From: Escherichia coli
GTDB taxonomy: Bacteria > Pseudomonadota > Gammaproteobacteria > Enterobacterales > Enterobacteriaceae
DNA: 64,000 nucleotides
Reading direction: 5' to 3' (one strand)
NCBI RefSeq assembly: GCF_024700885.2
Contig: NZ_CP117016.1
Positions 3,716 to 16,124 of the stretch are shown here, piece after piece (position 1 is the stretch's first letter; every line of letters starts with the position of its first letter). The notes beneath the pieces are model-generated. The model searched no databases. It saw nothing but the letters and a program-made list of their open reading frames with translations, and was not told the DNA's origin. The translations under genes and the position numbers were made by a program.

Positions 3716-4011
3716 CAGTACACCCCCACATCACGGTAAGCCGTCCAGAGTGCGCCTATCGTCATGGGTACGCGTGTTTTTGCGTTATCCGCGACAATCT
3801 GGCGATTTTCATACAGGTGAGCGATAAACATCATGCAGCCAATCTTTATGGCTGGCGTGAACTCCAGCCCGTCATCAAAGCGCCTGCCTATGTGTATCTG
3901 GCACGCCTCAAGCGATGCGGCAATGTATCCGCTGATTAACTGGTCTTCATCGTCGCCATCGATGCGGCAATGGAGTTTCACTTCTTCCAGGGTGATAAGT
4001 TCTTCTGTCAT
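3715..4011 (-). CDS. Head-tail connector protein (gp6-like)
   Basis: 98-aa ORF, MTEELITLEEVK... resembles phage gp6-like head-tail connector family; translationally coupled to neighbours. Confidence 0.65.
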   Translation of the reverse strand: MTEELITLEEVKLHCRIDGDDEDQLISGYIAASLEACQIHIGRRFDDGLEFTPAIKIGCMMFIAHLYENRQIVADNAKTRVPMTIGALWTAYRDVGVY

Positions 4012-4346
4012 TTTTCCGCGCCCTCACGACAAAGAATTTCAAGGCGTGTCCTGGCGGCATCCGGCAGCGGCTGCCCGATGATATTCAGTACACGCCCCGC
4101 CAGCGGCCCCGTACTGACCTTTATCCGGCTGGTGGCGTTGATGTCCTTCCGGTACCGTATCCAGATCCTTACGGTACCAATCGCCAGCTCTGCGCCCGAT
4201 GAAATGGCCTCCTTGCTGCTGACCATGTTCACGCTTGCCCAGAGTGTGTGACCGTCCTCCCACGTTTCGAGTATTTCGCCGGTTATATCCCTGGTCTGTT
4301 TCAGGGTCTGAATCGTTATCCTGTCACGCAGTCGCCCTATGTTCAT
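4008..4346 (-). CDS. Head-tail adaptor / head closure protein
   Basis: ORF 4008..4388; probable start MNIGRLRDRITIQ at 4346, directly after portal stop, typical N-terminus of head-tail joining proteins. Confidence 0.65.
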   Translation of the reverse strand: MNIGRLRDRITIQTLKQTRDITGEILETWEDGHTLWASVNMVSSKEAISSGAELAIGTVRIWIRYRKDINATSRIKVSTGPLAGRVLNIIGQPLPDAARTRLEILCREGAEK

Positions 4347-5554
4347 TCCGGTTTTTCTCCCTCGCTGATTTTTACTTCCTGTTTCCATGCCTGGCTGAAC
4401 TCATCACCACCATCACGCGGTGACAGACCTTCACGTTCGCGGGCTTCGTTCGGACACATAACGCCGGATTTGATGCCGCGCTCATAGGTGGCAAAGCGTT
4501 CGCCAGGTGTGGCCCGTAACAGGTCCGCGCTGTCAAACTCCACCTGATACCGGATACCAGGTACAGGCGAGGCCACCAGCAGGGCGTTTTTTATCTGCTG
4601 CTCAAAGTTCGCCAGCCACGGGCGCATCGTCATGGTGAGAAATGCGCGGCTTGCCTCGCTGAAATTGCTGTAGGTGCTGTTGCTGTATTCCTGCAAAAAA
4701 ATCGGCGAGACGTTGAACATTCGGGCGATGTCTTCAATGGTGAAGCGACGGGAGGCCAGCCATTCAGCATCCTGATTACTCATGCCCAGCTGCTGATAGC
4801 TCATACCCCCTTCAAGGATGGGCGTTTTTCCGGCGTTTCTGGCCCCTTTGTAGCGTTCCAGTGCGGCTAATGCCTGTTTGCCCTTCACGCCGTCCAGCCA
4901 TTCGCCTGACGTGATAACCCCTGCCGCCATCATGCCATCACGCATCACGCTCGCGCCGTGGCGTTGTTGGGCCAGCCCAAGCCCCAGCGATTCGCGGCAG
5001 ATGGTTACAGGTGAGCACCCCATAAAGCCGTCATCCGTGGAGTAACGAAGGTGAAGTACTTCCCACGGTAAATAGTTGCGGGTGTTTCCGGTGTAGGCGT
5101 CAGTGATGCAGTAGCGCCAGTTGTGTTCGCCTGTCTGCTCCACGTTCACCGACTGCGGCGGGTAAGGATGTAAAGCCGCCGGAAAACCATCACGCCCCCA
5201 CTGAATCACCGCATAAGCATTACCGTTTAACAGGCAGTGGCGGATCATCATTCGCTTAAACTGGTAGGGGGTTTGCCATGCGTTCGGGCGCTCGTTGAGG
5301 ATGTGATCGACCGGATGAGAATCAAGCCACTCGCGGGCCTCCTTCCCCTTCTCATTGCGTACCAGGTACAGGTAACACGGCATGGTAGCCACCGCCTCAG
5401 AGATGACCGTCACGGCGTTCATGACGGCGGGCAGTGATTCCGCTGTCCCCGATGATACGTACTCACCCGCCCCCGTGTTCGATGTGCCAGCCAGCGCCAT
5501 AAATTCATCCAGCGTCATGCTGCGCTGCTCTTTTTTTCTTCTGAAAGGCCACAT
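4343..5554 (-). CDS. Portal protein (HK97 family)
   Basis: 403-aa ORF sitting between the prohead protease and adaptor genes, resembling HK97-family portal proteins. Confidence 0.85.
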   Translation of the reverse strand: MWPFRRKKEQRSMTLDEFMALAGTSNTGAGEYVSSGTAESLPAVMNAVTVISEAVATMPCYLYLVRNEKGKEAREWLDSHPVDHILNERPNAWQTPYQFKRMMIRHCLLNGNAYAVIQWGRDGFPAALHPYPPQSVNVEQTGEHNWRYCITDAYTGNTRNYLPWEVLHLRYSTDDGFMGCSPVTICRESLGLGLAQQRHGASVMRDGMMAAGVITSGEWLDGVKGKQALAALERYKGARNAGKTPILEGGMSYQQLGMSNQDAEWLASRRFTIEDIARMFNVSPIFLQEYSNSTYSNFSEASRAFLTMTMRPWLANFEQQIKNALLVASPVPGIRYQVEFDSADLLRATPGERFATYERGIKSGVMCPNEAREREGLSPRDGGDEFSQAWKQEVKISEGEKPE

Positions 5555-7612: not shown

Positions 7613-7894
7613 TTATCTGTCCTGGTAATTTCGCCATATTTCATTACCAGCACCATCCATACCCATTTCGGCATAAGTGCGATCGACCGCCTTTTTCAGG
7701 TCTCCGTAGTTATCCGGCGGCTCCGGTGGCCTCTGTGCCTTCCTGGAACATTCCAGCCGTCGCATCGTGATGTGATGCCGTTCCTTGTCTGTCTCCACCA
7801 GTTGCATGACTTCACCCCATCGCGCCGACGCTCTCCGGTAAAAGCCTTTCGCCTCCAGTTCTTCCGCTATGCGGTCATGTACCATCGTCCCCAC
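7613..7894 (-). CDS. Hypothetical protein
   Basis: 93-aa ORF in operon with the SSB gene. Confidence 0.5.
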   Translation of the reverse strand: MGTMVHDRIAEELEAKGFYRRASARWGEVMQLVETDKERHHITMRRLECSRKAQRPPEPPDNYGDLKKAVDRTYAEMGMDGAGNEIWRNYQDR

Positions 7895-8871: not shown

Positions 8872-10626
8872 TTATAAAAACGCGTCGCACTCGTCTGTTG
8901 TTATTGCGTTAGTCTGCGTTACTCCCTTAACTTTCCGCGTAATATATTCATGTCCGTAAACTTTCGCGGCTGGCTTCATAGCCTTGCCAAAGTCATTTAC
9001 GTTTAGCGGTTTGCTCCTGCCTGCGTACGCCATAAACGCCAGATAGACGCGGTAAAGGCTGTTTCTGGTCGTGTACTTCACTGAATCGCCACCGCCGCCC
9101 ATCATCAGGCCGCGTGCTTCCTCCAGAAAATTCAGGAACTGGCAAAACTCAATAACCGGATCCGTCTGTTGCTTTATTGCCAGAGCTTCATCACCGTCAC
9201 GCTGTTCCAGTAGTAAAGCCCGTGCCTTCTCAGGGTCGGTAAAGTTCGCCAGCAATCGGCGGATAATGACAGGGATTTCAGCCGCGATCTTTTCCGGTAG
9301 CTCCCTGTCTTTTTCGGCCTCACTGACGATATTGTCGAAACGGAAAATCACGCGACGACGTGCCACACCTCCGGCCCGTTCGGTGAATATCATCGGGTTA
9401 TTGTTGGTCGCCAGCACCACCGCCCTGATTACCGCCGTGAAACGCTTTTCGTATTTCGGGTTAATTTCCACGGGGTCACCGCCCGTGATTTTCTTGATGC
9501 CCGTTCCTTCGCCTGTATATTTCGGCTGGTCAGCCAGGACGATAAGACGACTCCCGACAACCTGCGCACGTCCACCAGCATCATCAAGCGATGTCATTTC
9601 AGCGCTTACCGTGTTCTGTTTCCCTGCCAGAAGGCTGGCTATGTGTGTGAATGTACTTTTACCGCTCCCGCCGTCTCCGGTGGCCTCAATAAACATCTGC
9701 CAGTCGTACCGGTTCGCCATAATCATGTACAGCGCGGCACATATACGCATCATCTTGCGCGGGTCTTTTCCGGCTGCGTGCTCAAGCCATTTATGAAAGT
9801 TTGGCGCGTTATCGCGGATGTTCTCCCCTGGTGCTGGTGGCGTGTACTCAATGCCGTTGTGCGTGGTGATCCAGTTCTCCGGCGTGTGCGGGGAAAATTC
9901 CCCCGTTTTCAGGTCAAGCGCACCATTGGCGAACGGCAACAAATCGCCGGACGGCTCGCCCATTGGTTCGGCAATAACTTTTAACGCTTCCACGGCGTTA
10001 TTGATTACGCGCTTGCTGAAAGTGGCCCTGTGCTCTGAATAGATCGCCACCATTTCGCGGCTAAGTTCCATTGTGCTGACCGGACACCATACCCCGCCGC
10101 GCCATACGTGAACGATTTCACTTTCAGGATGTACGCAAACGCCATCAAAGCGATCGGCAAGCAGTTGCGCGCGCTCACTGTCCGCCATCTGCGAAAGTTG
10201 CGCCTTTTGCTTTACCGGAAGCTCAATGACCAGACCATCAGAAAGATTCTGGCGCTCACGGGCCAGATATTCGCGCCAGTTCTCCACCTTCTGACCGTGC
10301 ATACCATCAGGGTAAAAATTTGCATCCTGTACGCCTGCCGCCGCCAGCTTCTGACCAATCGCCTTTATCATTACTGGCGCAAGATATCCGGCCCTGAATA
10401 TGCGCACGGATTTTCTGCCTTCCGGCACAATTTGCAGCTTATCCAGTTCGGATAACTGCTGCTCCCCAAGCCACACAGGAGGCTCATTATCTCCGGCCAT
10501 ACGCGCGTCATGTTCCTGCCATTGTTTTGCGTGTGACCAGGCATCACTACCCGCAAAAATAATGACTTCTGTTTCTTTGTGTTTTATGCCGCGTGACTGC
10601 TGTTTTACGTTCGGTGCCAGTTTCAT
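8872..10626 (-). CDS. Replication initiator: phage/plasmid primase with D5/P4-type NTPase (helicase) domain
   Basis: 584-aa ORF with Walker A GDGGSGKST and downstream motifs typical of P4-family primase C-terminal domain; followed by iterons. Confidence 0.8.
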   Translation of the reverse strand: MKLAPNVKQQSRGIKHKETEVIIFAGSDAWSHAKQWQEHDARMAGDNEPPVWLGEQQLSELDKLQIVPEGRKSVRIFRAGYLAPVMIKAIGQKLAAAGVQDANFYPDGMHGQKVENWREYLARERQNLSDGLVIELPVKQKAQLSQMADSERAQLLADRFDGVCVHPESEIVHVWRGGVWCPVSTMELSREMVAIYSEHRATFSKRVINNAVEALKVIAEPMGEPSGDLLPFANGALDLKTGEFSPHTPENWITTHNGIEYTPPAPGENIRDNAPNFHKWLEHAAGKDPRKMMRICAALYMIMANRYDWQMFIEATGDGGSGKSTFTHIASLLAGKQNTVSAEMTSLDDAGGRAQVVGSRLIVLADQPKYTGEGTGIKKITGGDPVEINPKYEKRFTAVIRAVVLATNNNPMIFTERAGGVARRRVIFRFDNIVSEAEKDRELPEKIAAEIPVIIRRLLANFTDPEKARALLLEQRDGDEALAIKQQTDPVIEFCQFLNFLEEARGLMMGGGGDSVKYTTRNSLYRVYLAFMAYAGRSKPLNVNDFGKAMKPAAKVYGHEYITRKVKGVTQTNAITTDECDAFL

Positions 10627-10927: not shown

Positions 10928-11161
10928 TTATTCTCCGGTGTGCTGTTCTTTATATCTGTCGTGCAATAGATCTATTTCTTGCAGTTCCATTATTACAGGC
11001 TCAAGAAGCGTTATTAATGCCGTGGCAATTCTTGATTTTTGTTTGTCGCGTTCATTGTCGCCAAGTGTTTCAAGCCATATGCGCAATATTTCCAGCATGT
11101 TTTCACTGTGAGAAAGTGCAAGAAATGCGCGGTCTATTGTTTCGTGGTAAATATCACGCAT
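10928..11161 (-). CDS. Hypothetical small protein (accessory operon gene 6)
   Basis: 77-aa ORF, same strand, tightly packed. Confidence 0.45.
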   Translation of the reverse strand: MRDIYHETIDRAFLALSHSENMLEILRIWLETLGDNERDKQKSRIATALITLLEPVIMELQEIDLLHDRYKEQHTGE

Positions 11162-11387
11162 GGCTTACATCCTCAGGAAATTTTCTTCTATAACGCGCCT
11201 CTGCCACATATTCCGCATAATCGGCGGCGATATTCAGTACATCAAGCCCCGTTGATTTATATTCTCTCGTGGAAAGTAAGAAAAAAGCCGCTCTAATAAG
11301 TTCTGGCATTGACGAAAGCGCATCAGCCGCATCATCAGGAACGCCGGAAAATTCCTGTTTCAGGGAATTAAAACGATCATCACGCAT
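11154..11387 (-). CDS. Hypothetical small protein (accessory operon gene 5)
   Basis: 77-aa acidic ORF overlapping its neighbours by 8 bp. Confidence 0.45.
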   Translation of the reverse strand: MRDDRFNSLKQEFSGVPDDAADALSSMPELIRAAFFLLSTREYKSTGLDVLNIAADYAEYVAEARYRRKFPEDVSHA

Positions 11388-12016: not shown

Positions 12017-12182
12017 CGCTCAGGAATACGCAGACCTCACCGCTAAGGCGTTTAAGTAAGCCGATGATTGCCCCTGATTCGCTGTCGGTCATCATGCCAG
12101 GGTAATCCTCTGCCAGTGCGCAAATAACTTCGATTTGGTGGGCGCGTTCTGCTGCCTGTTGTAGTGTGATTTCCTGGCTCAT
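11952..12182 (-). CDS. Hypothetical small protein (accessory operon gene 2)
   Basis: 76-aa ORF, start overlaps the stop of the upstream gene. Confidence 0.45.
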   Translation of the reverse strand: MSQEITLQQAAERAHQIEVICALAEDYPGMMTDSESGAIIGLLKRLSGEVCVFLSDEQERRTLISNEKKCGGVHVQ

Positions 12183-12379
12183 AAGCCTACCCCCTGACGA
12201 ATACGGGCAGCAAATACCATCACGCAGCCAGCCGGAGATTGCTGGCGTGCTTCCTGTTCGCTGGTGGCCTCAATGGTAATCACGCGCGGTTGTGCCGTGC
12301 TCAGGGCGATAAAACGCCAGATGTATTTATTCAGGTTGTGCGAGTCCCGCCCTTGCGGGTGTGTGGTATGATTTCTCAT
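12179..12379 (-). CDS. Hypothetical small protein, first gene of leftward operon (Cro-like position)
   Basis: 66-aa ORF starting MRNHTT at 12379; the 340-aa ORF in the track is read-through across the regulatory region. Confidence 0.4.
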   Translation of the reverse strand: MRNHTTHPQGRDSHNLNKYIWRFIALSTAQPRVITIEATSEQEARQQSPAGCVMVFAARIRQGVGL

Positions 12380-12476
12380 AGCTACCTCGATACTTTCGCT
12401 ATCGTTGGTGGTTAGAAGCCCGGTTAGTGTTAGCGCACTGCCGGGTTTCGTCGTTTCTGCACCTTGCGCCAACAAG

Positions 12477-12528
12477 GTGTTGAACACCAATTTAAACCCA
12501 GGTGTTAAACACGTCAAGTGTTGAACAC
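12477..12528. promoter_or_regulatory. Three palindromic operators GTGTTnAACAC between divergent promoters
   Basis: gtgttgaacac (12477..12487), gtgttaaacac (12502..12512), gtgttgaacac (12518..12528) in the gap between divergent gene sets. Confidence 0.6.
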
Positions 12529-12578
12529 TTATTTTTTTTCCTGCATACTGCATTTGTTTTTTATGAGGGGTACACCAC

Positions 12579-12758
12579 ATGGCGACAAAAGCGGTAAACG
12601 CAAAATCACAAACCGTTGCGGCAAGGGTTCCGCATGAAGTTATGAACAATGTTGAGGCGGTAAAAATGCCTGGCGAAAGTACGGGGCAATTTGTTACTGC
12701 GGCATTAAAACGAGAAGTTGAATATCGCCAGCGGCGCAAGGCCAAAGAACCAGAGTAA
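12579..12758 (+). CDS. Putative ribbon-helix-helix transcriptional regulator
   Basis: 59-aa ORF (below the track cutoff) with a Shine-Dalgarno-like gagggg upstream; beta-strand/helix/helix pattern typical of Arc/MetJ/CopG family; adjacent to operators. Confidence 0.5.
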   Translation: MATKAVNAKSQTVAARVPHEVMNNVEAVKMPGESTGQFVTAALKREVEYRQRRKAKEPE

Positions 12759-12800
12759 TCACCATCAGCGCCGTGGTGTAAGGTATTACGGCGCATTGCT

Positions 12801-12989
12801 ATGCAGGACAACACAATGACCGATAAAGAATTGACCAAAACATTATCACCGGCACGGAAAAGACGGCGCAGAAAGATAGAGCATGAATCAGAAAGATTCG
12901 CGCCATGTGCTTTTGCCCTTGAGCAATTCCTTAAAGAGTACAGGGAAAAGCGCTCATTGCAGGTATGGCAACGAACTGAACCAGACTGA
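12801..12989 (+). CDS. Hypothetical small basic protein
   Basis: 62-aa ORF downstream of the RHH gene on the same strand, followed by a terminator. Confidence 0.4.
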   Translation: MQDNTMTDKELTKTLSPARKRRRRKIEHESERFAPCAFALEQFLKEYREKRSLQVWQRTEPD

Positions 12990-13083
12990 TTGCATTGCCC
13001 ACCAGCCTGATAACGGCTATCATCCCCGTGCTTATGTTTGGGATCACACACACAAACGGCGCAGCGGGTTATCTGTTCAGAAA

Positions 13084-13113
13084 GGCGGCTCCATTTCGGG
13101 GCCGCTTTTTTTA
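13084..13113 (+). terminator. Rho-independent terminator of rightward regulatory transcript
   Basis: Hairpin gcggctcc-attt-cggggccgc followed by TTTTTTT. Confidence 0.55.
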
Positions 13114-13258
13114 TACCTGAAAAACCCCAATTTTGTTGTTTTTCAGTTTCACCAGGGCGAACGAATCCCCGCCCACGTTCTGGCGTATATTCAATCTTCA
13201 TGGTTATAGCTCTGTGTTCAGATGATTGATGTGTGGCGGCTGCGTGCCGCCAGCGTGA

Positions 13259-13528
13259 TTAATGAACTGCCTTGCAGCTATCCTTCCAGGCCAGAACCTC
13301 GGATAAAGACCAGCCAACGGAACGACCGCCAAGTTTACGACGTGATGGGAATTGTCCGGCCTTTTCCAGGCGGTAGCGACACGTACGGCTAAGGCCGGTT
13401 AGTTTTTCGCATTCTTTTTCACGTATAAACCGATCAGTGCTTAACACTATTGCCCCCCTTTCGTTTCTTAAAGAGTCATCAGGTGTCTTATTGTGTCGTA
13501 TTGTTCCCGCTAGAGTGATGAATGGCAA
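13259..13528 (-). CDS. alpA: AlpA-family phage transcriptional regulator / excisionase-like
   Basis: 89-aa ORF; C-terminal region ...LTGLSRTCRYRLEKAGQFPSRRKLGGRSVGWSLSEVLAW matches AlpA-family pattern; adjacent to int; true start may be downstream. Confidence 0.8.
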   Translation of the reverse strand: MPFITLAGTIRHNKTPDDSLRNERGAIVLSTDRFIREKECEKLTGLSRTCRYRLEKAGQFPSRRKLGGRSVGWSLSEVLAWKDSCKAVH

Positions 13529-13812: not shown

Positions 13813-15042
13813 TTATTTTCTTCTGGCTACGGGTAGCGTGGTTACGTTTTCATGTGTTCCCGCCAGTATCCCTAACCGCTCCGTCCACATATCCAGCGCA
13901 TTGCGTTTCGCATCCAGATAACGGGAATGATTATAAACTCGCTGCATTCCTGGCATCTGGTGGCCTGTAAGCTGCTCCACGACATGCGGATCAACGCCTA
14001 AATCGTTCAGCATGGTTGTAAAGGTGCGCCGGATGTCATGCAGTGACCAGTGAGGGTGATTAAGCCTCCTGTACGCTAATCTTCCATACTGCGATACGCT
14101 GGCCTCCTGTTTCACTTCCCCCAGCAATAAGCCCGTGTGCCTGTTCTGCTCCACCAGCTGCGTGACGAACGGCAGGATCGCTTCCGGTATGGGCCGGAAT
14201 ATTGCGACCTTCGTTTTGCTGTGCTCCTTCGGAACGGTCCATAGCATTTCCGTAAAATCCCACTCCCCGATCTCCGATAACCTCAGTTCTACCGTTCTGG
14301 CTCCGAAGACAATCAGGAGGCGGATTAACGCGACGTAGTAAGGGGAGAATATTTTTTTGTCCAGTGCCTGCAATAATTCGCCAAGTTCTTTGTTACTTAA
14401 GACACGTTCGCTTATATCCGGTTTTTTCCCAACGTCCGCAACGTTCAGATCGTCCAGAACGTTGCTGATTGCATAGCGCCGCCTACGGCAGAACTTAAGC
14501 GCCTGTTTGCACGCCTGTAGCACGAATCCGGCAGTAACAGGCGTTCGCTTTGCCACCTGGTCAAAACAGGCCAGCCAGTGCCGTAGCTCGCATTTATCCA
14601 GCGGCATAGCACCAATCTGCTGTATTACGTGATTATTAAGTCGCCTTTTCAGGGCGATATAATCCACGCGGTTTTCCTTTACGTAATACTCAAGCCAGTA
14701 GGTGAGCGCATCGCCAACCGTTACGGGCTTTAACGCTTCCTGTACGGTGTAATTCATCTCATGACGTGGATTTTTCCCCTCAGCCAGCCATGTGCGACAC
14801 TGTGCGGCTTTTTCCCTGGCTGCTTTCAGGCTCAGATCAGGATAACTTCCCAGCTTAATGCGTTCGGGTCGTGTCTCCCTTCCCGTTCCGGCCCTGTATG
14901 TGAAATACCAGGTCAATTTCCCTGATGTTAAATATTTCACGCTCAGGTTTCCGCCATCACTATAAAACGTGTTTTTCTCCGCTGGCTTACCATGAAGTTT
15001 CCTTAGCAAGGTATCGCTCAGTTTGTTCATTGCTCTGCTCAC
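13813..15042 (-). CDS. int: Tyrosine-type site-specific integrase (P4-like)
   Basis: 409-aa ORF with catalytic-domain motifs (HDIRRTF, GHQ, VYNHSRY) at the island end next to the chromosomal junction. Confidence 0.92.
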   Translation of the reverse strand: MSRAMNKLSDTLLRKLHGKPAEKNTFYSDGGNLSVKYLTSGKLTWYFTYRAGTGRETRPERIKLGSYPDLSLKAAREKAAQCRTWLAEGKNPRHEMNYTVQEALKPVTVGDALTYWLEYYVKENRVDYIALKRRLNNHVIQQIGAMPLDKCELRHWLACFDQVAKRTPVTAGFVLQACKQALKFCRRRRYAISNVLDDLNVADVGKKPDISERVLSNKELGELLQALDKKIFSPYYVALIRLLIVFGARTVELRLSEIGEWDFTEMLWTVPKEHSKTKVAIFRPIPEAILPFVTQLVEQNRHTGLLLGEVKQEASVSQYGRLAYRRLNHPHWSLHDIRRTFTTMLNDLGVDPHVVEQLTGHQMPGMQRVYNHSRYLDAKRNALDMWTERLGILAGTHENVTTLPVARRK

Positions 15043-15215: not shown

Positions 15216-16124
15216 AATGCTGTTATTCTTAACCCGCTGGTGCAACACATGGTCCGCTGGCGTGTGCCGCGTGTACTGGCAGTGTCGATTTTGATGACCA
15301 TCATCGTGATGGCGATGGTGTTGCTGTTAGCTTATCTGGGTTCCGCACTCAACGAGTTGACGCGGACGTTACCGCAATATCGCAACTCTATTATGACGCC
15401 GCTGCAAGCTCTTGAACCGTTGTTGCAACGCGTAGGGATTGACGTCTCAGTTGACCAACTGGCGCATTACATTGATCCGAACGCGGCGATGACGTTGCTC
15501 ACCAACTTATTGACGCAGTTATCTAATGCCATGTCATCAATCTTTTTATTGCTGCTGACGGTGCTGTTTATGCTGCTCGAAGTGCCACAATTGCCCGGAA
15601 AATTTCAGCAAATGATGGCGCGTCCGGTTGAAGGGATGGCGGCGATTCAGCGTGCGATTGACAGTGTGTCTCATTATCTGGTGCTGAAAACAGCCATCAG
15701 CATCATCACCGGCCTGGTCGCCTGGGCGATGCTCGCCGCACTCGATGTTCGCTTCGCTTTTGTCTGGGGATTGCTGGCCTTTGCGCTTAATTACATCCCG
15801 AATATTGGTTCAGTTCTCGCGGCAATCCCCCCTATTGCTCAGGTACTGGTGTTTAATGGCTTCTACGAAGCGTTGCTGGTGCTGGCGGGATATCTGCTGA
15901 TTAATCTGGTCTTCGGCAATATTCTGGAGCCACGCATCATGGGGCGTGGGCTGGGGCTTTCCACATTGGTGGTATTTTTGTCGTTGATTTTTTGGGGATG
16001 GTTGTTAGGACCGGTGGGTATGCTGCTTTCCGTGCCGTTGACAATTATTGTCAAAATTGCGCTTGAACAAACAGCGGGAGGTCAAAGCATCGCCGTTCTG
16101 TTAAGCGATCTCAATAAAGAGTGA
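15216..16124 (+). pseudogene. tqsA: tqsA (AI-2 exporter) truncated at 5' end by island insertion
   Basis: Reading frame matches TqsA from about residue 47 ([13 protein letters not shown]...) to the native stop; in-frame stop at 15213..15215 and island sequence upstream; N-terminal 46 codons and promoter absent from window. Confidence 0.8.

Follow-up and report, generated by a model that had tools for sequence, protein, structure and literature searches.

Phage-inducible chromosomal islands (PICIs) and capsid-forming PICIs (cf-PICIs) are very common in Enterobacterales, and the islands move virulence and defence genes. In the Staphylococcus aureus pathogenicity islands (SaPIs) and other Gram-positive PICIs, a divergently oriented repressor, Stl or Rpr, lies between the integrase side and the replication/packaging operon, and Stl is inactivated by a helper-phage protein. 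For the Gram-negative islands EcCICFT073 and EcCIEDL933, the only two for which helper-phage induction and transfer dependent on alpA have been published, the published model comprises an activator only. In EcCICFT073, AlpA is an activator switched on by the helper phage, raises a reporter fused to “ORF3” downstream of alpA and, over-expressed on its own, brings about excision and runaway replication (PMC6092414). For Gram-negative PICIs AlpA is the sole known regulator; their founding paper left the existence of a repressor unclear, and the word repressor is absent from the cf-PICI preprint (10.1101/2022.09.08.507074). Here, the subject is a small regulatory region in a 64,000-nucleotide stretch of an Escherichia coli chromosome (assembly GCF_024700885.2, contig NZ_CP117016.1; hereafter the window). 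It consists of a rightward gene for a 59-amino-acid (aa) YlcI/YnfO-family protein, three palindromic sites in front of it, and a candidate antisense RNA laid over the start of a leftward operon that begins with an Icd-like gene. We consider it probable that this region is the control centre of a cf-PICI, in which a predicted ribbon-helix-helix (RHH) repressor and its operators silence the leftward operon, the antisense RNA furnishes a second layer, and transcriptional read-through driven by AlpA provides the override.

The logic, if correct, is a familiar one. In the immI region of phage P22, the RHH repressors Arc and Mnt act on overlapping divergent promoters that control an antirepressor, and the switch proposed here would work likewise. 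The likeness does not extend to sequence, for the 59-aa protein has no detectable relationship to Arc. Its sites are single 11-bp palindromes 16-25 bp apart, whereas Arc employs a 21-bp tetramer operator, and the operon at stake has the Icd-like gene at its head, with functions for replication and the capsid behind it; binding is here inferred. With Stl and Rpr the region shares a divergent gene for a repressor, here a putative one, with the integrase side on one flank and the replication/packaging operon on the other, together with a presumed role in quiescence. Stl, however, is a larger helix-turn-helix (HTH) protein, whereas the 59-aa protein is a predicted RHH with neither homology to Stl nor an HTH fold, and induction in the studied relatives proceeds via AlpA (PMC6092414). 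EcCICFT073 and EcCIEDL933 belong to the same island family and have the same order of int, alpA, module, Icd-like gene and pri.

The most conspicuous feature of the region is a set of three exact copies of the 11-bp palindrome GTGTTNAACAC within 52 bp, between the divergent gene sets, in agreement with the original prediction: O1 (GTGTTGAACAC) at 12477-12487, O2 (GTGTTAAACAC) at 12502-12512 and O3 (GTGTTGAACAC) at 12518-12528. No further exact copy occurs in the 64-kb window. Tolerating up to one mismatch gives 7 matches where 1.97 would be expected, and 0 of 100 shuffles reached this number. Among 30 distinct sequences of close relatives, taken from islands whose protein is 97-100% identical, none of the 30 half-site positions varies, whereas variation is seen at 2 of the 3 bases in the centre and at 34 of the 106 positions nearby. 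Such invariance amid varied surroundings means that the sites are under selection; a chance repeat is ruled out by the shuffles and the half-site conservation together. A one-mismatch look-alike, GTGTTAAGCAC, lies on the minus strand at 13437-13447, on the GTG start codon of a 62-aa form of AlpA. It was rejected as a regulatory site and is probably coding sequence only, because the identical sequence is present in islands of other operator types.

The palindromes are embedded in predicted promoters. A promoter scan places a leftward promoter on the minus strand at 12489..12517, with -35 TTGACG (12517-12512), a 17-bp spacer and -10 TAAATT (12494-12489). O1 starts 2 bp past this -10 and covers the predicted leftward transcription start, and O2 lies within the spacer and abuts the -35. 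A rightward promoter for the RHH operon at 12521..12549 (plus strand), under the scan threshold and read by eye, would consist of TTGAAC, a 17-bp spacer and CATACT (12544-12549), followed by the Shine-Dalgarno sequence GAGGGG of the RHH gene at 12566-12571; O3 contains its -35 (12521-12526). All divergent relatives keep a GTCAA or TTCAA motif, the plus-strand view of the leftward -35, and a TAnnnT -10 at the same positions, their leftward promoters reading by eye as TTGACG-18-TATAGT in EcCICFT073 and TTGACG-17-TAATAT in island L050. The rightward -10 is likewise kept as (C/T)ATACT by every relative. Most of the other specificity types have their third site directly after this hexamer and not on the -35. 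The layout thus fits repression of the leftward operon from O1 and O2 and autoregulation from the third site.

The protein that would occupy these sites is encoded at 12579-12758 on the plus strand. It scores 59.7 bits (E 2.1e-16) with NCBIfam NF041551 (YlcI/YnfO), whose cutoff is 30, matches phrog_949 as well, and is named YlcI/YnfO by PGAP where the identical protein is annotated. The YlcI/YnfO family includes two E. coli K-12 y-genes. Across an alignment of 27 members the N-terminal MAT..N.KS is invariant, residues 11-15 are variable, and R16 and H19 are again invariant. So is a G32-E33-S34 turn, which supplies the G-x-S/T/N found at the start of the second helix in RHH proteins. The NCBIfam and Pfam searches returned no HTH family for the protein. 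A monomer model, an extended N-terminus followed by two helices, is uninformative about the sheet, and a linked-dimer model was therefore built from two copies joined by a flexible linker, with the alignment of the 27 homologues joined in the same manner. Each half then folds as strand 10-18, helix 19-28 and helix 35-55, with a core pLDDT of 85-90 and a pTM of 0.69. The predicted model has the beta-alpha-alpha topology, the intertwined dimer and the two-stranded antiparallel sheet of the RHH class. The 59-aa protein is thus a predicted RHH dimer, and the RHH-like character that the original prediction had guessed for the open reading frame is borne out at the level of a predicted fold.

The principal evidence that connects protein and palindromes comes from comparison across islands. 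Relatives were gathered from IMG/VR and from the genomes of ten enterobacterial genera, giving about 90 related islands in which paired sites are kept at about -100 and -77 from the ATG. The taxa with fixed paired sites are E. coli, Edwardsiella, Kosakonia, Yokenella, Yersinia, Pectobacterium, Proteus, Xenorhabdus, Regiella and Klebsiella. Absence of the palindromes from related islands had been named as a reason to abandon the switch; they are present and paired in these relatives, and their sequence varies with the RHH allele. The inner bases of the site change together with beta-strand residues 11-15, yielding about a dozen specificities. The strand SQT[V/I/L]AARV goes with GTGTTNAACAC, SKKLEARV or SRKLEARV with GTGTCAGCCAC, SKKIDVRV with GTGTCAGACAC and SKRFDVRV with GTGTCGGACAC. 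SQALKARV or SQSLKSRV goes with GTGTGG(C/T)CCAC (for instance GTGTGGCCCAC), SQKIHARV with GTGGAACACAC, and SQKLQ(A/T)RA with GTGGA(C/T)TCCAC, of which GTGGACTCCAC is the form for SQKLQARA. SQKTSVRI is paired with GTG(A/G)(C/T)GGACAC and SQKMSARV with CTGGCACCCA; one SQKIQARA island has CTGGATTCCAG and another GTGGAGTACAC, and a Klebsiella protein of 39% identity has GGTGCACCCCCAC. The outer GTG/CAC triplets are constant in most site types, as are the invariant residues of the protein, the exceptions being the CTGG-type sites.

Natural recombinants separate the RHH allele from every other candidate. Islands L050-L054 have alpA, integrase and second small gene 98-100% identical to those of the window, yet they carry a GTGTCAGCCAC protein and GTGTCAGCCAC sites; in L053 even the Icd-like gene is 95% identical to the window's, and the operators are of the foreign GTGTCAGCCAC type. 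Conversely, the Icd-like gene of L021, L022 and L024 is 50% identical, and the operators are those of the window. In the loci examined, operator type tracks the RHH allele without exception and does not track the alleles of alpA, integrase, primase or the Icd-like gene. On the strength of this shuffling, the palindromes were rejected as sites for AlpA, Int or the Icd-like protein. It supports the conclusion that they behave as operators of the 59-aa protein, which would recognize them sequence-specifically through its beta-sheet.

The same comparisons indicate that the putative repressor and its operators are an exchangeable specificity cassette, reminiscent of a phage immunity region and present in about a dozen enterobacterial variants. 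This is argued by the linkage of operator type to RHH allele and by the island of O157 strain 644-PT8 (L002 3783-3998, beside roxA/pepT), where a different cassette occupies the same slot between conserved flanks. Its 57-aa RHH-like protein has weak matches to YlcI/YnfO (E 0.0014) and to Arc (E 0.041), and GGTAATTACC occurs twice between the rightward -10 and the start codon, the second copy overlapping the gene's own start codon. EcCICFT073, the island in which AlpA was studied, carries the module as well: int, alpA, a 57-aa gene, a YlcI/YnfO gene, two copies of GTGTGGCCCAC with a partial third site after TATACT, the Icd-like gene and primase. Two further loci, L063 (Enterobacteriaceae RIT693) and L064 (Cedecea neteri), encode YlcI/YnfO homologues in flanks with no match to alpA, integrase, primase or Icd-like gene and with the RNA element absent. 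Each has a single CTGTCGAACAG palindrome right behind a CATACT hexamer, an arrangement suggestive of simple autoregulation in a different genetic setting.

The first leftward gene, at 12179..12379 on the minus strand (ATG 12379-12377), encodes a 66-aa protein that matches NCBIfam NF033153 (Icd-like) with 69.9 bits against a cutoff of 25 (E 1.4e-19). This match rules out the Cro-like regulator that had been proposed at this place; the resemblance to Cro holds for the position and not for the identity. PHROGs labels the Icd-like family “transcriptional repressor”. Downstream follow overlapping small genes, then primase, SSB, PerC and the capsid and packaging genes. PGAP calls the Icd-like gene 66 aa or 104 aa long, varying between genomes.

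Exactly antisense to the 5′ untranslated region (5′UTR), Shine-Dalgarno site and start codon of the Icd-like gene, the plus strand of 12380..12460 can form a compact structured RNA of about 75-80 nt, with hairpin 1 at 12380-12413, a terminator hairpin at 12415-12449 and a U-run at 12450-12460. Its fold energy is -26 kcal/mol (z -3.6). In 51 of 51 distinct relatives the plus strand folds better than the minus strand (means -30.5 versus -20.0 kcal/mol). In an alignment of 26 sequences, pairing holds in 94.5% of cells, and for 15 of the 20 pairs both sides have changed, a level attained by none of 500 shuffles; slid controls pair at about 40%. The many G-U pairs in this alignment would be mismatches if the other strand were the one that folds. 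A covariance model made from the alignment finds one copy per island, always on the plus strand, including 13 sequences that had not been used and the O157 type, and no copy elsewhere in the window or in the non-PICI homologues. Covariation of the structure is thus directly seen, and the element is a candidate type-I-like antisense RNA. A putative extended -10, TGgTATGAT, read by eye at 12364..12372 (plus strand), lies within codons 2-5 of the Icd-like gene. Most of the 51 distinct relatives likewise have a TAnnnT hexamer (TATGCT, TAGACT and so forth), its distance from hairpin 1 unchanged.

The nearest known counterpart of this element is SymR. Rfam SymR (RF01809) aligns to 12380-12452 (plus strand) over the full model length and including the hairpin tip GUGUUnGCGCAC / GUGUUAGCGCAC, at a sub-threshold 33.3 bits (E 7e-4). 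The same position scores 28 bits (L065) and 26 bits (L075) in Kosakonia and Yersinia islands. SymR and the candidate share a length of about 77 nt, a two-hairpin architecture with the second hairpin a terminator, a location opposite the 5′UTR and start codon of a potentially toxic gene, and an RNA promoter, putative in the candidate, inside the first codons of the target. They differ in score (33 bits versus a gathering score of 61) and in target, which is here Icd-like (NF033153) and not symE. Thematic relatives are the immI region of P1 (c4 RNA, icd, ant) and the CI RNA of P4, in which an Icd-type gene heads the operon, a small RNA occupies the leader and an Ant-type gene is associated. In contrast to P1 immI, this locus has no Rfam C4 match, an additional protein repressor is proposed, and an ant remnant lies upstream of the Icd-like gene. 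An Rfam search found no C4 or P4-type RNA even at relaxed threshold, and no family reached its own threshold anywhere in the window.

On the rightward side, a second small gene lies 45 bp downstream of the RHH gene at 12801-12989 (plus strand). It would encode 62 aa from 12801 or, more likely, 57 aa from a conserved ATG at 12816. Its start context (CAGG-7 nt-ATG) is conserved, its indels come in multiples of 3, and its product has a basic N-terminus and a conserved ERFAPCAFxLExFLKEY core. The families searched gave no match beyond the unannotated phrog_21027 (E 1.6e-15). PGAP annotates it as a coding sequence in CFT073 and not in the identical island of strain CFSAN061761. It segregates with the alpA side and not with the RHH allele, and is absent from L026, L030, L034, L043, L045, L046 and L056-58. 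The RHH operon ends at an intrinsic terminator at 13081..13113 (plus strand; a GC hairpin followed by T7; -22.4 kcal/mol, z -4.35), which read on the minus strand has -14.6 kcal/mol and a poor U-run. Beyond it, at 13259-13528 on the minus strand, stands the gene for the AlpA-family regulator (Pfam PF05930, E 1.9e-16; PGAP calls a 62-aa form at 13259-13447), upstream of the leftward operon and co-directional with it. The switch is therefore, as anticipated, distinct from AlpA, and with AlpA encoded by a separate upstream gene more than one layer of control is plausible. The original prediction did not include the antisense RNA, the second gene apparently co-transcribed with the RHH gene, or the presence of the same module in EcCICFT073.

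Taken together, these elements suggest the following wiring. In the integrated state, a dimer of the RHH protein on O1 and O2, which bracket the leftward -10 and cover the start site, would shut the strong-looking leftward promoter and leave the operon for the Icd-like, replication and packaging functions silent. Occupancy of O3, on the protein's own -35, would provide negative autoregulation. A constitutive cis-antisense RNA would meanwhile pair with the Icd-like ribosome-binding site and block leaky translation. Upon induction by a helper phage, AlpA would promote transcription that starts at the alpA promoter, passes the terminator on its weak leftward face, runs antisense over the repressor operon and enters the leftward operon. 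Such read-through would bypass the repressed promoter and, by collision with transcription of the repressor, would shut the repressor down, so that derepression follows. Read-through from the alpA promoter would be the simplest wiring. It accords with the behaviour of EcCICFT073: the module is present there and over-expressed AlpA alone induces, which places AlpA either upstream of the repressor or epistatic to it. In Pseudomonas, a distant member of the AlpA family is reported to act as a processive antiterminator (PMC7969949, PMC9371919).

Several observations weigh against this proposal. The induction of EcCICFT073 by over-expressed AlpA alone also means that a repressor, if acting, is overcome with no anti-repressor from the helper phage, and is perhaps not the master control. 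The predicted fold depends on an artificial tandem construct modelled with AlphaFold, because neither the 59-aa protein nor any of the 27 family members has a Pfam match at E <0.01, the curated RHH families included, and a 27-sequence profile search of the PDB sequences found no relevant solved relative. The centre-to-centre spacings of the operators are 25 and 16 bp (22-25 bp in relatives), so that neighbouring dimers would not lie on one helix face; Arc-like cooperative binding as a tetramer is on this account doubtful, and independently bound dimers are favoured. In the O157-type module no leftward promoter could be placed on the palindromes. As for the RNA, its promoter has a poor -35, and its SymR score, far under the Rfam threshold, places it outside that family as defined.

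Other explanations of the same features deserve consideration. Conceivably, the RHH gene and the second small gene form an autoregulated two-gene cassette, toxin-antitoxin (TA)-like or accessory, whose palindromes have no role in silencing the leftward operon. Many type II TA loci indeed have an RHH gene first, a small second gene and palindromes in the promoter. The arrangement here, with a second gene 45 bp downstream and palindromes in the promoter, has this layout, O3 or the post -10 site in the relatives is clearly placed for autoregulation, and the two palindromes of the O157 type are both found on the side of the RHH gene. Yet many islands lack the second gene and keep the RHH gene and operators, and the second gene does not co-segregate with the RHH allele; nothing suggests that it is toxic, its unannotated PHROG match being the only one. 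Moreover, two of the three sites coincide with the predicted core promoter of the leftward operon, in a position that is the same in every YlcI/YnfO-type island. We regard such a cassette as unlikely. A shade less probable still is that the module acts mainly in trans, as immunity or interference directed at islands of the same type, whether incoming or co-resident, or at helper-phage genes, and not as the island's own maintenance repressor. The many exchangeable specificities do resemble phage immunity regions, genomes hold up to 6 related places, and family members outside a PICI context have a single palindrome after the -10 (L063, L064). However, bona fide phages almost never encode the protein (1 of 50,697 records, a satellite-sized entry of 16.5 kb), and the same sites are present on the resident island's own promoters, so that action in trans is compatible with silencing in cis.

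Very improbable, finally, is that the palindromes are bound by some other factor (AlpA, the integrase or an excisionase, the Icd-like protein or a host protein) or serve as origin iterons, with the 59-aa protein unrelated to them. AlpA-family proteins are reported to bind DNA near promoters (PMC9371919), and the PHROGs label for the Icd-like family points in the same direction. The agreement of operator sequence with RHH allele, exceptionless in the loci examined, and its disagreement with the alleles of alpA, int, primase and the Icd-like gene speak against any such factor. Besides, the sites number just three and lie between divergent promoters, unlike PICI origins, which are found after pri-rep (PMC6092414). 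Repression of the leftward operon by the RHH protein, backed by the antisense RNA and overridden by AlpA read-through, thus remains the reading we favour.

A more elaborate version of this reading arises from a long open frame on the minus strand. The frame spans 12179..13258: it is open from the stop codon of alpA (13259-13261) onward, joins the Icd-like gene in frame and ends with it, and would encode 340 aa from its first ATG at 13201. It thus runs antisense to the terminator and both small genes, and likewise to the promoters, operators and RNA element. The equivalent in the O157 island measures 314 aa and that in CFT073 428 aa; among about 58 loci, nearly all have 200-550 open codons in this frame, the exceptions carrying 1-bp changes in a T-run. 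The third positions of the long frame coincide with those of the plus-strand genes. For this reason, by our derivation, the wobble positions of both frames being the same, codon periodicity cannot pick the coding frame between the second small gene (orf62) and the long antisense frame. Opposite the divergent RHH genes the long frame is stop-free in 15 of 15 cases, and the other two antisense frames have 1-6 stops each. Redrawing the codons without changing the protein left each gene a chance of 0.06-0.74 of having this frame open, with a product over 11 operator types of about 6e-7. As a baseline from host genes in the window, the same frame is open in 16% of 60-codon, 4.6% of 120-codon and 0 of 84 200-codon windows; both baselines fall far short of the openness seen in the islands. 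PGAP is inconsistent over 12754-13201 and 12801-12989 (L001, L060, L093), with a minus-strand “Icd-like” or “BRO-N” pseudogene called in some genomes and a plus-strand hypothetical protein of 57 aa in CFT073; its minus-strand “Icd-like pseudogene” calls reflect the long frame.

The N-terminus of the frame (MKIEYTPERGRGFVRP...) is homologous to the start of an intact AntA/KilAC-like gene of about 282 aa bearing a GEIIPVISGVIGGRETNIVSARALH motif. In L017 (about 3890-4701), L039, L047 and L053 this antirepressor-like gene is intact, on the minus strand, with alpA on one side and the repressor module on the other. In the window a remnant of about its first 27 codons is left at 13120-13201. The remnant in CFT073 is larger (L060 9767-10150) and has weak matches to Bro-N and to anti-repressor PHROGs. 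One may accordingly imagine three nested layers with a built-in override: the RHH repressor, the SymR-like RNA, and a selected antisense frame of several hundred codons that serves as a translated leader into the Icd-like gene. AlpA read-through transcripts would then be translated from the antirepressor-remnant start across the terminator, repressor genes, operators and RNA target into the Icd-like gene. The ribosomes would shield the long leader from Rho, strip off the antisense RNA block and couple into the operon, while convergent transcription silenced the repressor. We hold this translated-leader scheme to be speculative and rather improbable as a whole.

The setting of the region is that of a cf-PICI. 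The 15-kb island occupies roughly 0.7-15 kb of the window, on the chromosome, and is inserted in tqsA. Its minus-strand genes run from the integrase (13813-15042) through the AlpA-family regulator, the switch region, the Icd-like gene and small genes to the primase (8872-10626), followed by SSB, PerC, an HK97-type capsid protein, protease, portal, connectors, HNH, TerS and TerL; these assignments come from the open reading frames and from the PGAP annotation of an identical island. No tail gene is present in the island by the list of open reading frames of the window. This is the cf-PICI gene set as described (10.1101/2022.09.08.507074): about 15 kb with int, alpA, primase/replication genes, its own capsid, protease, portal, connector, HNH, TerS and TerL, and tail-less. 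The attachment site is a protein gene, tqsA, because a tRNA search found no tRNA in the 64-kb window. The gene, for an AI-2 transporter, is split by the island into two annotated fragments (window about 15240-16124; L001 758-901). The island is 100% identical in strain CFSAN061761, with which the PGAP annotation agrees. In that identical island PGAP marks as frameshifted a small gene of the leftward operon, located at 11154-11387 of the window (L001 12068-12288). A gene for a PerC-family regulator lies at 7613-7894 (minus strand) between the SSB and capsid genes; a PerC homologue in the PICI EcCIMP1 is reported to repress LEE1 (PMC11773190). The GTGTTNAACAC cassette is found in 485-501 of 5,426 complete E. 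coli genomes (about 9%), and parts of the 1.2-kb region in 1,683 of the 5,426 (31%). Like the 59-aa protein, the Icd-like gene is almost never carried by bona fide phage genomes, and a lambdoid-phage context was of no use for comparison because homologues in phage genomes are essentially nil.

The kind of switch described here is classical. Its presence in these islands, its modular specificity and its layering appear to be undescribed: the literature searched, which lay largely outside the subscription journals, held no paper on the function of the YlcI/YnfO family and nothing relevant on YlcI/YnfO, on PICIs with ribbon-helix-helix proteins, or on PICIs with SymR or Icd-like elements. The module thus offers a candidate repressor for a kind of island thought to have no clear one, and a first functional hypothesis for the YlcI/YnfO family. 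How a toxic replication and Icd-like operon may be silenced, and how AlpA may switch it on, become directly testable with a 59-aa protein, 11-bp sites, roughly a dozen natural variants and EcCICFT073. Those variants would in addition provide a natural set of orthogonal mini-repressor/operator pairs.

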